Part shown: positions 3,848-18,826 of the stretch, piece after piece
How the letters are laid out: each line of letters starts with the position of its first letter
How positions within the stretch are numbered: position 1 is the stretch's first letter
NCBI GenBank assembly: GCA_002713205.1
Contig: PAVW01000005.1
Span: 1-31,695, forward strand
Length of the DNA: 31,695 nucleotides
Direction: 5' to 3'
DNA from: Nitrososphaerota archaeon
GTDB taxonomy: Archaea; Thermoproteota; Nitrososphaeria; Nitrososphaerales; UBA57
The notes under the pieces: generated by a model
Told to the model about the DNA's origin: nothing
What the model saw: only the letters and a program-made list of their open reading frames with translations
Databases searched by the model: none
Program-made: the position numbers and the translations under genes

Positions 3848-4345
3848 TTATTTTTTTTTTGAATTTATTATTCCAATAGATTGTACCCTATCTTTTATTA
3901 TTACTATTAATATAGAACCTAATACTCCAACTGATAGAAAAGTTCCAATAAATAAATCAGTTATTCCTACAATAATAGGTAAATTGAATAGATAAGCAAT
4001 ATACACACCTACAATCATTGAAACGATAACAATCTGGCAACCTATACCAACAATGAACGGAACTTTGTTATTTCTACATATCTTCCATGCTACATACGTT
4101 GCAATAAAATTCGCAACTGTTCCTCCTATAATGTCAATAAATCCTAATCCACCAAATACATTTGCAACAACTGTACCTAAAGACAATCCAATTATTACTG
4201 GCATGCCAAAAATAATTGAAAGTGGTAATAATGCGTCTGCAATTCTCACTTGTATAGGTAAAAAACTAAACGGAGCTAGAAAAACTACTCCAATTGCATA
4301 TAATGCTGCAAATATACATGTTAACGATATTTCTTTTGAATTCAA
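3848..4345 (-). CDS. queT: QueT-family transporter (queuosine/7-deazaguanine precursor transporter, ECF S-component-like membrane protein)
   Basis: 165 aa and polytopic. IFAALYAIGVVFLAPFSFLPIQVRIADALLPL and GLGFIDIIGGTVANFIATYVAWK match the QueT (COG4708) pattern. TTG start preceded by GAGGTGA. Confidence 0.8.
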   Translation of the reverse strand: MNSKEISLTCIFAALYAIGVVFLAPFSFLPIQVRIADALLPLSIIFGMPVIIGLSLGTVVANVFGGLGFIDIIGGTVANFIATYVAWKICRNNKVPFIVGIGCQIVIVSMIVGVYIAYLFNLPIIVGITDLFIGTFLSVGVLGSILIVIIKDRVQSIGIINSKKK

Positions 4346-4415
4346 CCTTTCACCTCTTTACCGGGATTTTTTTATTAGCGGAACGGACGGAGGTGTCCTC
4401 AATCACCCGCTATTA
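4346..4415 (-). promoter_or_regulatory. Structured GC-rich 5' leader of queT, a candidate riboswitch or translational control element, including the Shine-Dalgarno GAGGUGA (4350-4356)
   Basis: The mRNA sense reads AGCGG-GUGAUUGAGGACACCUCCGUCCGUU-CCGCU-AAUAAAAAAAUCCCGGUAAAGAGGUGAAAGG-UUG. Inverted repeats are 4377-4381/4407-4411 and 4351-4356/4390-4395. It is a GC island in AT-rich spacer. Confidence 0.5.
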
Positions 4416-4463
4416 ATTATTATATATTGATTTTATTAATAATCTTTTCTTCTTTCTATATTA

Positions 4464-5222
4464 TTATCTATCATCTACTCTAGGCGCCAAATAAAAATTC
4501 ATAAACCCGCCCGAATCACCGAGTTTACATTGTAGTTTAAATGGCATTCCATTTGAATATTCGGCATTAATTGTATCTGTTGTAGCTCCTATCGCTTTCA
4601 CAATATTTAACAAATATTGTAAACTATAAGTTGCTTTATTATTTTCTTCCGAATTAATTTCTAAAATTTCATTATCATTTTTTTCTAATATTATTGATGC
4701 TTGACCAGAATCACCTATTCCGACGAACTTTACATTATCTTGATTAGTTTCAATAGTTATATGATCTGCTATTGCAGCAACATCATTTAATGCATCAACA
4801 AATGCCGTTTTTGAAATTACAAATTTTGAATTTAATGATAATTTAGGAACAGGAGAGGGAGTATACGAACTTTCAATTAAACGTATTTTAAATTCTCTTT
4901 TATAACCGTTTTCTAATTTAATATTTAGATATTCATTATCAGTTGCAGAAATTGTTATACGATTTTTTGACGCTGCTCTTTTAATTAATTTTGATAATTC
5001 TTCAACCCGTACAGTTAGTTTGAAAGGTTTTTCACATTCATATTTTTCAAATGATGCATTTGGCCAATTTAAATCAATCATTGCCACATGAGATGGATCC
5101 ATCCCTCTAAATTGTATGCCTTCTGGTGTAGCTTCGAAACTTGCTTCCTCAACAAGAACAGAAATAGCATTTACTATAATCTTCCATTCATTTGCTGAAC
5201 TTGTTTGTGCAATAAATGACAT
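4464..5222 (-). CDS. pcn: DNA polymerase sliding clamp (PCNA)
   Basis: 252 aa with the archaeal PCNA pattern: FEATPEGIQFRGMDPSHVAMIDL, two-domain length, and C-terminal LAPRVDD. Confidence 0.9.
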   Translation of the reverse strand: MSFIAQTSSANEWKIIVNAISVLVEEASFEATPEGIQFRGMDPSHVAMIDLNWPNASFEKYECEKPFKLTVRVEELSKLIKRAASKNRITISATDNEYLNIKLENGYKREFKIRLIESSYTPSPVPKLSLNSKFVISKTAFVDALNDVAAIADHITIETNQDNVKFVGIGDSGQASIILEKNDNEILEINSEENNKATYSLQYLLNIVKAIGATTDTINAEYSNGMPFKLQCKLGDSGGFMNFYLAPRVDDR

Positions 5223-5285
5223 TTACTATAATTCTCCTTAATGTTTGTTATGAATAAGTTCTAAATAATAACTATTGTTAAGTAA

Positions 5286-5615
5286 TTAAGAATACTCTCT
5301 CCATGTCTTATTACATTTAACACAACGATAGAATCTAGTAGCCGGTTCATCTCCGCTTCTAGTTTGTCTCTGCCACGAATACGCTTCTTCATTTCCACAT
5401 TTTGGACATTTCTCTTTTTCTATTGGTAATGTACGCATATCGGATTTACTCTTTATTTTAATAGAATCTTTTTTTCCTATTGCTTCTACTGTTAAAATTG
5501 GTGATTCCAACTTCACAGCAAACGATTTATCACAATTTCTACAATATAATTGTACATTGCCATCGTCTTCCTTTCTTCGGATAGTTTTTTCTCCACATGA
5601 ATCACAAAATTGCAT
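5286..5615 (-). CDS. tfs: Transcription elongation/cleavage factor TFS (TFIIS/RpoM-like)
   Basis: N-terminal zinc ribbon (CDSCG...CRNC) and a C-terminal TFIIS-type ribbon: CPKCGNEEAYSWQRQTRSGDEPATRFYRCVKCNKTW. Confidence 0.9.
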   Translation of the reverse strand: MQFCDSCGEKTIRRKEDDGNVQLYCRNCDKSFAVKLESPILTVEAIGKKDSIKIKSKSDMRTLPIEKEKCPKCGNEEAYSWQRQTRSGDEPATRFYRCVKCNKTWREYS

Positions 5616-10778: not shown

Positions 10779-11110
10779 AGGCGCGTCTTAGTAGTTTAAG
10801 GAATAACAAAAATTCCAATCAATTATTGCTACTTAACCCTCTTTTTGTTTCAGGTAGGATTTAGCTTAGCGGCCTACCCAAGTCTCAATCAGGAAATCTT
10901 TGACTCTGTTTGGCCTTGCTCCATGTGGGACGGCCGTTTCATTCCATCACTTGAAACCTCAGATTTTCATCCTCATCGTATTAACAAGCTTGGATATCGT
11001 TTCTGCTCCGGTGCCATCCATCTCTGAATATGTCTCTCGACATCACATTCCTGATAGGAGAGAGGAGTTTCCTCAGTTATACCGAAACCTACCCTCTAAC
11101 TCACGCCACT
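10778..11110 (-). ncRNA. rnpB: RNase P RNA (archaeal type A-like); boundaries are approximate
   Basis: GC-rich island. The minus strand carries CUGAGGAAACUCC (CR-I, cf. GAGGAAAGUCC), GGAGCAAGGCCAAACAGAG (cf. E. coli GGAGCAAGGCCAAAUAGGG), UUGGGUAGGCCGCUAAGC (cf. GGGUAGGCUGCUUGAGC) and ACAAAAAGAGGGUUAAG (CR-V, cf. ACAGAAnnCGGCUUA). AGAGG-GUU can pair with AAACUCCUCU as P4. Terminal pairing GGCGUG/CGCGCC plus UUAG/CUAA could form P1. Confidence 0.85.
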
Positions 11111-12140: not shown

Positions 12141-12214
12141 TGCGGGATCCGGGATTTGAACCCGAGACCCTCAGCTTGGGAAGCTGATATCCTACCAGAC
12201 TAGACGAATCCCGC
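12141..12214 (-). tRNA. tRNA-Gly (anticodon CCC); 74 nt, no encoded CCA, no intron
   Basis: The minus strand reads GCGGGAU-UC-GUCU-AGUCUGGUA-GGAU-A-UCAGC-UUCCCAA-GCUGA-GGGUC-UCGGG-UUCAAAU-CCCGG-AUCCCGC-A. This folds as a cloverleaf with U33 and A37, and the T-loop is UUCAAAU. Confidence 0.9.
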
Positions 12215-16145: not shown

Positions 16146-16862
16146 ATGAAAATAATTATGTTAGGAACGGGTGACGCTTTTTCTACAGGTGGTAGAGCTA
16201 GCATATCAATTTTTCTAGACGGTACTTACAAAATTCTTTTAGATTGTTCTCCTCATGCTGTTTATTCACTGAGAAAATGTGGATATTCACCTAATCAAAT
16301 ACAATATGCATTCATAACACACCTTCATGGTGATCACGTAGGTGGTCTTCCATTTCTTTTACTTAATTTAATTCACAAAGAAAAAGGTAAAATCATTGTA
16401 TCTGGCCCCCCGGGCCTATCTAATCTAGTTAACTCTGTTTATTCGGAATTATTTGGCCAAACCAATTATACAGATTATCTAGATATAAGACCTCTAAATA
16501 AAAATTTTCCATTTCAAATTGATTACATACAGGGTAATCACTCAATTCTTGATTTTATTTACAAAATTGAAATGGATGGTATTAAAATAGTATATACAGG
16601 AGATACTAGAAAAGTAGATCTATCCAAATTTGCTTTTCAAGCTGATTATTTGTTTCACGAAGCAGCTGAAGTTGATGAAAAAAATGCAGAAAAATCTGGT
16701 CATACAACTCCTCTACAAGCAGCTAAAATAGCTAAAGAAGCTCAGGTTAAAAATTTAGTTTTAATTCATAGACCAGAATTTGATACTGATCTAATTAATA
16801 ATATTAAAAATATTTTTCCTAATACTATTTTCCCTAATGATTTTGATATAATTGAACAATAA
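16146..16862 (+). CDS. MBL-fold metallo-hydrolase (short RNase Z/phosphodiesterase-like), specific function unknown
   Basis: IIMLGTGDAF...LLDCSP...FITHLHGDHVGGLPFLL (HxHxDH motif), and later GDT and HEA blocks. Its 3' end overlaps the queD start by 11 nt. Confidence 0.75.
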   Translation: MKIIMLGTGDAFSTGGRASISIFLDGTYKILLDCSPHAVYSLRKCGYSPNQIQYAFITHLHGDHVGGLPFLLLNLIHKEKGKIIVSGPPGLSNLVNSVYSELFGQTNYTDYLDIRPLNKNFPFQIDYIQGNHSILDFIYKIEMDGIKIVYTGDTRKVDLSKFAFQADYLFHEAAEVDEKNAEKSGHTTPLQAAKIAKEAQVKNLVLIHRPEFDTDLINNIKNIFPNTIFPNDFDIIEQ

Positions 16863-17352
16863 TTTAAAAAATGATAATGACCCTAGTAAAAGTATTATTT
16901 TGAATTATTATTCGACCAAAAAATTTGGACCAATAACAACTAGTCACAGACAGTGGAGAGATAAAGGAAGTTGTAAATTTATACATGGTTATGCAAGATA
17001 TATTGAGGTTACATTTGCATGTAGCTCTTTAAATGAACAACAATGGGTCATGGATTTTGGTGGCTTAAATAAGCTTAATGATTGGCTTCATCAACAATGG
17101 GATCATAGATTGCTAATATCTAGTGACGATCCTTTGTTACAAGATTTCAAAATGCTTCATGATAAAGATGGATGTAATTTGAATATAATGGATATTAATA
17201 AAGGCTGGGGACCTGGTATTGAATCTTCATGTAAATTCGTGTTCGATTATGCTGATAATTGGATTAAACAATTAACATCAAATCGTGTCTGGATTTCTAA
17301 AATACAAATCTGGGAACATGAAAAAAATTCTGCAATTTTATCTATAGAGTAA
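16852..17352 (+). CDS. queD: 6-carboxy-5,6,7,8-tetrahydropterin synthase (QueD/PTPS family)
   Basis: PTPS-fold blocks: TSHRQWRDKGSCKFIHGYARYIEVTF, VMDFGGLNKL, WDHRLLI. Track start is TTG, overlapping the upstream stop. Confidence 0.75.
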   Translation: MNNNLKNDNDPSKSIILNYYSTKKFGPITTSHRQWRDKGSCKFIHGYARYIEVTFACSSLNEQQWVMDFGGLNKLNDWLHQQWDHRLLISSDDPLLQDFKMLHDKDGCNLNIMDINKGWGPGIESSCKFVFDYADNWIKQLTSNRVWISKIQIWEHEKNSAILSIE

Positions 17353-17367
17353 TACTCGTGAAATTCT

Positions 17368-18036
17368 ATGAACCAAAAGGAAAAAGTAATAGTTCTTTTA
17401 TCAGGTGGTTTAGATTCTACAGTTTGTCTATGGTTAATGAAAGAAAAAGATTTTGAACTTTATACTATTACTTTCAATTACTTCAAACGATTTAAAAAAG
17501 AAATTCAATCTTGTTTACAAATTGCTACTTTTGCACAAGTTAAAGAACATAAAACTATAGATTTATCATTCCTTTCTGAATTTGAAGATGAAAAATATCC
17601 TGATTCAAGTCCTTTATTAAATACTAAAAAATTAATTCCGCCTAATTATATCTCTTCCAGAAACTTAATTTATTATTCAATTGCCGCTTGGTGGGCAGAA
17701 AAAATTGGCGCAAGTAAAATAATTGGTGGGCATAATAAAGATGATATAATTTATTTTCCTGATACAACCACTGAATTTTTTTCCTTATTGACAAAATCAA
17801 TAAATCTGGGAAATTATGGTTCAAGTTCTCATAAATATCAAATTATTATTCCCTTGCATAATTATACAAAGTTAAATGTTTTAGAAGAAGCAATTCGTCT
17901 TGATTTACCAATAAACCTTACTTGGAGCTGTCAACGTCGAGAAGATATCGCATGTGGAATTTGTTATTCTTGTAAATCTAGACTAGAATCTTTTCGTCAA
18001 ATTGGTAAAACTGATCCATTAGTATATGCTTTTTAA
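17368..18036 (+). CDS. queC: 7-cyano-7-deazaguanine (preQ0) synthase QueC
   Basis: PP-loop VLLSGGLDSTVCL, and a C-terminal zinc cluster: WSCQ...CGICYSCKSR. Confidence 0.9.
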   Translation: MNQKEKVIVLLSGGLDSTVCLWLMKEKDFELYTITFNYFKRFKKEIQSCLQIATFAQVKEHKTIDLSFLSEFEDEKYPDSSPLLNTKKLIPPNYISSRNLIYYSIAAWWAEKIGASKIIGGHNKDDIIYFPDTTTEFFSLLTKSINLGNYGSSSHKYQIIIPLHNYTKLNVLEEAIRLDLPINLTWSCQRREDIACGICYSCKSRLESFRQIGKTDPLVYAF

Positions 18037-18094
18037 ATTAGCACTAGTAATTTATAGGGATATTTTTATTATATGATGACCATTTTTTAGTTAT

Positions 18095-18826
18095 ATGTTC
18101 AAACACACTAATTTTCGAAAAAATTTCCCAGTTTCTGATTTACCAGATATTCAAAATGAAAAATCACGTTTAAATGTTCATGCAGGAATTTCTAATTTTA
18201 AAACCATTTTTTATGGGTTTGGCTGGCAACTTCCAATAGATATCTCTGTAATAGTTTCTACAGATAATACTCGTGGAGTGCATATGAGTAGATTAGTAAA
18301 AACAACAAAAAAATTTATGAATACAAAATATATTGAAGAATCTCTAATTAATATCCAAAAAGAAGCCAATACCACACAACAAAACTGTAAAGTTATTGTT
18401 AACTTTCAATACCCATTCGAAGATCAATTCTTAGATATATCCATAACACTTGATGAAAAATGTAAATTTAATTATTTATTTTCACTATCTGGTATTACGT
18501 CATGTCCTTGCAGTAAAGCTATTGTTGGAATAGGACATATGCAACGTACCGTTTTGACACTTGAACTTTATGATACTATGGTGAATTTTGATGAAACTGC
18601 TCTAGATTTGTCGAATTGTTTTTCAGCTAAGTTAGAAGAATTTCTTAATCGTCCAGACGAAGCAAAAAAGATAATTGAAGCTCAAGAAAATTCAAAATTT
18701 GTTGAAGATGTGGTACGAGATTGTAAAAAACGATTTCCTCATGCAAAATACATAAATGTTACGAGCCTCGAATCAATTCACTCTCATAATGCAATAGCGT
18801 ATTGGGATTCAAATAATCAAATCTAA
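18095..18826 (+). CDS. folE2: GTP cyclohydrolase, FolE2/MptA family (type IB/IV)
   Basis: DLPDIQNEKS near the N-terminus, GVHMSR and SGITSCPCSKA (metal-binding CPCS), and the size typical of the DUF198/FolE2-MptA family. Confidence 0.8.
   Translation: MFKHTNFRKNFPVSDLPDIQNEKSRLNVHAGISNFKTIFYGFGWQLPIDISVIVSTDNTRGVHMSRLVKTTKKFMNTKYIEESLINIQKEANTTQQNCKVIVNFQYPFEDQFLDISITLDEKCKFNYLFSLSGITSCPCSKAIVGIGHMQRTVLTLELYDTMVNFDETALDLSNCFSAKLEEFLNRPDEAKKIIEAQENSKFVEDVVRDCKKRFPHAKYINVTSLESIHSHNAIAYWDSNNQI

Follow-up and report, generated by a model that had tools for sequence, protein, structure and literature searches.

A pseudoknotted leader of archaeal queT genes as a probable new riboswitch class for preQ0 salvage and synthesis

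Introduction

Is the leader of an archaeal queT gene a riboswitch and, if so, does it belong to one of the classes already known? The question is raised by a stretch of 31,695 nucleotides (nt) from a Nitrososphaerota archaeon (Nitrososphaeria; Nitrososphaerales; UBA57), positions 1 to 31,695 of the forward strand of contig PAVW01000005.1 (assembly GCA_002713205.1), which we refer to as the window. Upstream of its queT gene, which is read on the minus strand, a preliminary description of the window had noticed a GC-rich element at 4346-4415 with the general layout of a class I preQ1 riboswitch but a much larger loop, and had proposed a divergent or new sensor of the 7-deazaguanines preQ0 and preQ1. 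Among the copies that we found of a motif of ~65 nt, this leader (4346-4411, minus strand) diverges most. That the element is a genuine cis-regulatory RNA is very likely. It probably belongs to a riboswitch class of archaea that has so far gone uncatalogued and would act on the translation of genes for preQ0 salvage and synthesis, with preQ0 as its presumed ligand.

To our knowledge, validated archaeal riboswitches are few and all fall in classes shared with bacteria. A 2024 review of the preQ1 family lists three classes and makes no mention of archaea. Neither a fourth preQ1 class nor a preQ0 riboswitch or an archaeal queT motif was described in the literature that we searched, which covers few subscription journals.

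Results

The leader of the window occupies the spacer between the PCNA gene (4464-5222) and queT (3848-4345), read on the minus strand. The queT open reading frame encodes a QueT transporter of 165 amino acids (aa) (PF06177, E = 3e-26) with a UUG start at 4343-4345. As described at first, the element stands out from an AT-rich spacer, with a GC content of 0.45 at 4360-4419 versus 0.15 over the remaining spacer. The nested fold of the window leader alone is not significant (z = -1.17), and searches against Rfam 15 returned nothing relevant for positions 4250-4550 even at E ≤ 10, or for 14 other motif loci at E ≤ 1. The nature of the element was therefore decided by comparison with related sequences.

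Copies of the leader were collected along two routes. A genome scan with QueT peptide patterns found three loci, in two Thaumarchaeota metagenome-assembled genomes and one Bathyarchaeota metagenome-assembled genome (QueT 46% identical), and all three carry the leader directly upstream. Seven further homologues, followed by exact protein sequence, led to 11 more loci with the leader at each. The motif is thus present at 14/14 queT loci reached by protein, which hold 11 distinct leaders. Conservation upstream of queT orthologues, on which the preliminary description had let its proposal depend, therefore extends down to 46% protein identity and across two archaeal classes. In total, 360 QueT homologues were found, and those listed all carry PF06177.

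For the second route, metagenomes were scanned with the reverse complement of the pattern GCGS-GUGA-N10-22-CCGUU-SCGC-N0-10-AAAY-CCCGG, which gave at least 120 contigs with the motif. Together, the listed metagenome matches and the protein-derived loci amount to 126 distinct motif sequences. The same pattern had no match in 2.9 million viral contigs, and it occurs once in the window against 0.00 expected occurrences. The AAAY block had been added because a looser version matched phage genes by chance: its 25 viral-contig matches lie in GC-rich phage coding DNA, show no pairing with a Shine-Dalgarno sequence (SD) and score at most 24 bits with a covariance model of the motif, versus 42-86 bits for real copies. 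Where the linked QueT proteins have source names, these are Thaumarchaeota or Nitrososphaerales for the AT-rich copies and Candidatus Bathyarchaeota or Bathyarchaeia, including Ca. Termiticorpusculum, for the GC-rich majority. A search with the covariance model through the window and ~0.8 Mb of related contigs turned up no additional copy, save for a half-copy at L103:3856-3944 (minus strand). This truncated half-copy (GGCGCGUGAGUGGGGCCUCCCAC, followed by unrelated sequence) is preceded at ~28 nt by a TATA-like box of its own and shares its contig with a complete copy; it is probably a decayed duplicate.

Read from 5′ to 3′, the first half of the consensus is R-GCGS / GUGA / GUGG(G)n / anti-SD / AC / CCGUU / SCGC-Y. 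The second half continues with an A-rich linker / AAAY-CCCGG / NGUA / SD (GGGAGG or GGAGGUG) / 5-9 nt / start codon. The first helix, P1, consists of 5 bp (RGCGS/SCGCY) and closes a loop that holds GUGA, the anti-SD and CCGUU. In the window, all on the minus strand, the 5′ strand of P1 is AGCGG (4411-4407) and pairs with CCGCU (4381-4377). The loop begins with the junction GUGA (4403-4406), followed by a variable part, UUGAGGA (4396-4402), whose GAGG (4397-4400) can pair locally with CCUC (4390-4393). The anti-SD CACCUC (4395-4390), which is the 5′ strand of the pseudoknot, comes next, and CCGUU (4382-4386) stands directly 5′ of the P1 3′ strand. After P1 follow the linker AAUAAAA and AAAU-CCCGG (together 4361-4376), and then a UAAA spacer with the SD GAGGUGA (together 4350-4360), in which GAGGUG (4356-4351) forms the 3′ strand of the pseudoknot. 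The coordinates given in the preliminary description are correct throughout, as are the A-rich tail after the helix (an A-rich tract at 4376-4366) and the SD placed 4 nt ahead of the start codon (UUG at 4345-4343).

Across the protein-derived loci, the GCG and CGC of P1, GUGA, CCGUU, AAAY and CCCGG are invariant. The junction GUGA is unchanged in 14 distinct full-length protein-derived leaders and fixed by the DNA pattern elsewhere; more generally, the 126-sequence set was mostly collected with a pattern that fixes GCG, GUGA, CCGUU, CGC and AAAYCCCGG. The element holds ~25 invariant unpaired nucleotides within ~65 nt, across two archaeal classes. The two bases directly 5′ of the P1 3′ strand are UU (CCGUU/SCGC) in 122/122 aligned sequences, and no copy lacks the A-rich linker and AAAY after P1. 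Other parts vary in length. Ahead of the anti-SD, the loop comprises GUGA and a further 3-9 nt; the second helix has 5-9 bp, and in the protein-derived set the linker varies such that CCCGG comes 8-17 nt after P1. In GC-rich relatives, the spacer ahead of the SD is a conserved NGUA. A GGAGG-type SD is paired over 5-9 bp in 128/128 instances, so that the entire SD lies in the pseudoknot helix.

We built a covariance model, aligned 102 matches and scored the structure composed of P1, the pseudoknot and a CCG/CGG pairing. In this alignment, which was fitted to the pseudoknot, standard pairs fill 96.4% of cells versus 85.0% in shuffles, and 0/500 shuffles reach the observed value. Sliding the 3′ partners by 1-3 columns leaves 43-62% of cells paired. 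Changes on both sides are seen at 10 pairs, compared with 6.3 in shuffles. Both pairings for which the preliminary description had proposed a covariation check thus pass it. At position 5 of P1, where the search pattern let each base be G or C independently, the pair is G-C in 69 rows, C-G in 29 and unpaired in none. At position 1, which the pattern also left free, GC, GU, AU, CG and UA all occur.

The anti-SD/SD helix, first noticed as the complementarity of CACCUC and GAGGUG, covaries as well. Changes on both sides are found at 8/9 of its positions across relatives, and the flanking positions show up to six pair types. Among the matches listed there are ~40 distinct pseudoknot helices, including CAUCUC/GAGAUG, GCCUCCC/GGGAGGC and UCUCC/GGAGA. 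Anti-SD and SD also change together among the protein-derived loci, as CACCUC/GAGGUG, CAUCUC/GAGAUG and CCUCCC/GGGAGG. In a mutual-information scan of the alignment, P1 and the pseudoknot pairs alone stand out, and no extra tertiary covariation was detected. The CCG of CCGUU can pair with the CGG of CCCGG in a possible third helix, P3, but this pairing is uninformative because all three pairs never vary. An alternative pairing of CGGG in the 5′ arm with CCCG in the tail, also put forward at first, is lost in all 38 instances with GCGC in P1.

A local hairpin competes with the pseudoknot. In most relatives it takes the form GUGG(G)/(C)CCAC (GAGG/CCUC in the window), overlaps the anti-SD and is 96.8% paired. 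The GAGG-ACA-CCUC hairpin of the preliminary description appears in the nested minimum free energy fold of the window, while its register is not conserved. Its mutual exclusion with SD sequestration stands, since both structures use the anti-SD and cannot coexist. In nested energy minimisation, P1 and the local hairpin form and the SD stays unpaired. The pseudoknot by itself is less stable, so that a ligand could shift the equilibrium.

We also looked at where the element lies relative to the promoter. In 126 distinct upstream regions, numbered from the first P1 base (0), AT content reaches 0.79-0.91 at -32..-27 (box at -34..-27) and A makes up 0.41-0.49 at -40..-35. Position -1 is preferentially T or A, and position 0 preferentially G. 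This is the archaeal layout of a transcription factor B recognition element (BRE) and TATA box at -40..-27, and it puts the transcription start site (TSS) at P1 or no more than a few bases from it. The RNA therefore probably begins at P1, as predicted from the position of the promoter. In the window, the predicted TSS lies at or just before 4411, and a putative promoter, a purine-rich BRE-like AGAAAAG followed by a TATA-like ATTATTA (4438-4451, minus strand), is found 27-40 nt upstream of P1, although the window is so AT-rich that the exact box cannot be fixed there. A TSS downstream of the element would, according to the preliminary description, have spoken against a riboswitch; the promoter signal is found upstream of it instead.

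Measured from P1 through CCCGG, the motif is 44-54 nt long and changes in steps that are not multiples of three, and the window leader has an in-frame stop between GUGA and the start codon. The element is therefore a 5′ untranslated region (UTR) and not coding. In public annotations, the called queT start often falls within the leader: at the GUG of GUGA (L012:1201), at the GUG of GUGG (L008:1201) or at a loop AUG (L004:1201). With starts called in this way, many QueT entries in databases are 13-20 residues too long and RNA is annotated as coding. At some loci the queT start position holds a codon other than ATG, GTG or TTG, with the SD at normal distance, namely ACG (L116, L136, L155), CTG (L053, L066, L088) or ATC (L121). 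In Bathyarchaeia, these codons could reflect non-canonical initiation or gene decay.

Gene context was taken from 133 motif instances, comprising the matches listed and the protein-derived loci. Of these, ~113 precede queT, including several divergent QueT clades. At 17 listed loci, queT and queC form an operon on the same strand in which queC begins 430-540 nt after the motif (L041, L043, L056, L059, L064, L067, L080, L091, L099, L106, L127, L130, L137, L148 and L154 among them). A QueT::QueC fusion is encoded under the motif at L125:4175-5344 (PF06177, E = 5e-19; PF06508, E = 2.5e-62). At locus L045 the motif stands ahead of a queE-like radical-SAM gene whose five best NCBIfam matches are all QueE (E = 2e-31); queC (E = 9.6e-36) comes next, and on the upstream side is priX, which encodes an archaeal primase subunit. 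A second, partial case of the motif preceding queE is found at L156. As queC, queE and the QueT::QueC fusion come under the element in addition to queT, preQ0 metabolism is indicated. At L049:1366-1428 the motif stands ahead of a queT that breaks off after 71 codons, and the queC behind it is split over two frames; this looks like a decaying queT-queC operon with an intact leader.

A further ~12 listed instances precede a family of membrane proteins of ~233 aa without any Pfam or NCBIfam match. Loci of this family with the motif are L046, L047, L057, L069, L076, L098, L123, L135, L144, L151 and L160-L163 (gene 3001-3711 in L160-L163), and the motif is present at 4/4 of its loci fetched by protein. 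The 190 members in databases are all unnamed or called "hypothetical protein", and the sole member with a source organism comes from Bathyarchaeota. S-components are the substrate-binding subunits of energy-coupling factor (ECF) transporters, and the best matches of an AlphaFold model of the family (predicted local distance difference test score, pLDDT, 79) are the ECF S-components FolT, RibU, BioY, PanT and ThiT (probability as high as 1.0, TM-score as high as 0.67), although the E-values, at 0.08-0.5, are weak. We regard the Bathyarchaeia family as a candidate 7-deazaguanine transporter. A direct relationship to QueT was considered and rejected, as hhalign aligned the first transmembrane helix only, at 44% probability. 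In L160-L163, a conserved zinc-ribbon protein of 63-66 aa (CxxC...CxxC) follows the 233-aa gene. Every identified product under the element is thus either a preQ0-synthesis enzyme or a vitamin-type membrane binding protein.

Around the window element, the genes adjoining queT are PCNA, nadC and nadA. The order TFS - PCNA - queT - nadC - nadA (window 3848-5615) is common to the window and other thaumarchaeal contigs (L004, L013), and in a soil and sediment clade a Macro-domain gene follows queT instead (L006, L008-L012). Elsewhere in the window, 16852-18826 on the plus strand encodes a preQ0-synthesis cluster consisting of a QueD-like PTPS (16852-17352), QueC (17368-18036; PF06508, E = 3.9e-48) and FolE2 (18095-18826). 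The only matches above Rfam gathering thresholds in the whole window are an archaeal RNase P RNA (10828-11100, minus strand, 187 bits) and one tRNA (12141-12214, minus strand).

Discussion

How might the leader work? We propose that the anti-SD in the loop and the SD would pair to form an H-type pseudoknot that hides the ribosome-binding site. When the ligand is absent, the anti-SD would be partly held in the local hairpin, which would thereby represent the ON state, the SD would be free and QueT would be made. When the ligand is bound by the invariant unpaired nucleotides, the pseudoknot would be locked, the SD buried and translation switched off. The leader has the general features by which riboswitches are recognised, as it is a conserved structured 5′ leader with covarying helices and conserved unpaired bases that precedes several genes of one pathway. 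Bacterial preQ1 riboswitches apply the same control logic to queT and queCDEF (PMC11625349). The most likely ligand is preQ0, which archaea have as their free 7-deazaguanine base, because QueC produces it and the archaeal tRNA-guanine transglycosylase (TGT) inserts it on the way to archaeosine (PMC5372724, PMC11298593).

Several points weigh against this proposal. The choice of preQ0 is read from gene context alone, and a TSS at P1 is a prediction from sequence. The invariance of the fixed blocks is free of search bias in the 15 protein-derived leaders only. The swap between G-C and C-G in P1 may reflect few evolutionary events. As the CCUCC/GGAGG core of the second helix is near-universal, the covariation signal there comes from the helix flanks and a few core variants; when partners are exchanged among instances, the helix still averages 6.15 bp, compared with 6.62 bp before. 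In addition, the anti-SD resembles the 3′ end of 16S rRNA, a constraint on both strands. The local hairpin shows few compensatory changes. Lastly, the queD-queC-folE2 cluster of the window gives no match to the covariance model, and in the source organism the element appears to govern the salvage transporter only.

The same architecture could serve another ligand, such as 7-carboxy-7-deazaguanine (CDG, the substrate of QueC), preQ1, the archaeosine base, queuine or guanine, and we consider this unlikely. CDG deserves mention since the frequent queT-queC operons and the QueT::QueC fusion suggest that some transporters import it: in the QueC-coupled clade, the transporter is coupled to the enzyme that turns CDG into preQ0, so this clade may import CDG rather than preQ0. 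Furthermore, the preQ1-I class has a ligand-pairing C (in AC or UC) 5′ of the P1 3′ strand (PMC11625349), in whose place the archaeal element has its invariant UU. On the other hand, riboswitches on genes for biosynthesis and salvage usually work by end-product feedback, and the part of preQ0 in the archaeal pathway described above favours it over the other candidates. We know of no report of free preQ1 as an archaeal metabolite.

There is a slim chance that the partner of the leader is a macromolecule, so that ArcTGT, QueC, a dedicated repressor or a tRNA would stabilise the SD-sequestering pseudoknot. Archaea do use protein-bound elements in 5′ UTRs, and the sequence data are compatible with such a partner. 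Against it, ~25 invariant unpaired nucleotides in ~65 nt, placed before at least four unrelated gene products, are the usual signature of a metabolite aptamer, and no candidate regulator gene is conserved beside the element at the protein-fetched loci. A reading of GUGA and GUUCC as a K-turn or T-loop fails by inspection, as a K-turn would need a GA in the strand facing GUGA, which is absent, and the GCGC variants depart from the T-loop consensus.

If the leader is a metabolite sensor, it might still fall within a known preQ1 class as a divergent representative; class I, with its loop enlarged, would then be the most plausible choice. The likeness that the preliminary description saw is borne out in the topology: like preQ1-I, the archaeal element has an H-type pseudoknot, a P1 of 5 bp, an A-rich strand after P1 and a helix from loop to tail that overlaps the SD (PMC11625349). 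Moreover, preQ1-I controls queT and que biosynthesis genes, and many of its members are translational OFF switches (PMC11625349). The dimensions differ, however. Class I measures ~34 nt with a 2-nt loop 1 and a P2 of 3-4 bp, whereas the archaeal element is about twice that size (~65 nt), with a loop 1 of 14-26 nt and a second helix of 5-9 bp. Besides replacing the ligand-reading AC or UC by UU, it adds invariant CCGUU and AAAYCCCGG, covers the SD in full and has an archaeal promoter and archaeal hosts. The Rfam models of the three preQ1 classes, a scan of which had been suggested at the outset, were without a match: preQ1-I (RF00522), preQ1-II (RF01054) and preQ1-III (RF02680) did not hit positions 4250-4550 of the window at E ≤ 10, nor 14 other motif loci at E ≤ 1. 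This speaks for a separate, new class; that the element is a divergent class I is very improbable. Of the two options first offered for a 7-deazaguanine sensor, it is therefore the new class, with its ligand presumed, that gains support.

The other known classes are further removed. Like the archaeal element, preQ1-II is found upstream of queT and has its whole SD in Watson-Crick pairs within a pseudoknot helix, and the class regulates translation only (PMC11625349). It differs in being an HLout pseudoknot with helices P1-P4, in which the P4 hairpin is embedded between the two strands of P3, and in occurring solely in Bacillota, whereas the archaeal element holds the P1 3′ strand and the A-rich linker between its pseudoknot strands, with no conserved hairpin. 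Class preQ1-III was itself found by looking upstream of queT and is likewise pseudoknotted, with anti-SD:SD pairing in its expression platform (PMC11625349). At ~100 nt, with an HLout aptamer apart from a distal P4/P5 platform and mostly in Ruminococcaceae, it is unlike the one compact unit seen here. The archaeal members of the thiamine pyrophosphate (TPP) and fluoride (crcB) classes are also cis-acting 5′ leaders that directly follow a TATA/BRE promoter. Both classes occur in bacteria too and are represented in Rfam, whereas the present motif was found in archaeal sequences only and has no family in Rfam 15.

Finally, a constitutive translational attenuator or mRNA-stability element that senses nothing and merely tunes membrane-protein expression through anti-SD:SD pairing is hardly credible: such pairing alone can set a fixed translation level, and the universal CCUCC/GGAGG core makes up much of the helix, but the invariant GUGA, CCGUU and AAAYCCCGG, the conserved competing hairpin and the restriction to one pathway, soluble QueE and QueC included, would be left unexplained.

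What would a preQ0-responsive translational riboswitch mean for these archaea? We see about an even chance that the motif is the first riboswitch class confined to archaea and the fourth structurally distinct class for 7-deazaguanines, one that reads preQ0 and not preQ1 and defines an archaeal preQ0 regulon in Bathyarchaeia and ammonia-oxidising Thaumarchaeota. If so, two globally abundant lineages would share this regulon, which would take in a new S-component-like transporter family as well as queT-queC modules that hint at CDG salvage. The 7-deazaguanine riboswitches are a textbook case of convergent aptamer evolution, to which the motif would add another independent RNA architecture. It would also offer archaeal genetics a native and compact (~65 nt) translational switch. 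For annotation, the leader exposes a systematic error, in that queT is often called from within it. The regulon can further serve as a predictor of function: it flags the 233-aa Bathyarchaeia family as a likely 7-deazaguanine transporter and the queT-queC modules as a likely salvage route for archaeosine precursors. An archaea-only class on TATA/BRE-started, SD-dependent mRNAs would show that archaea evolved metabolite-sensing RNAs of their own.

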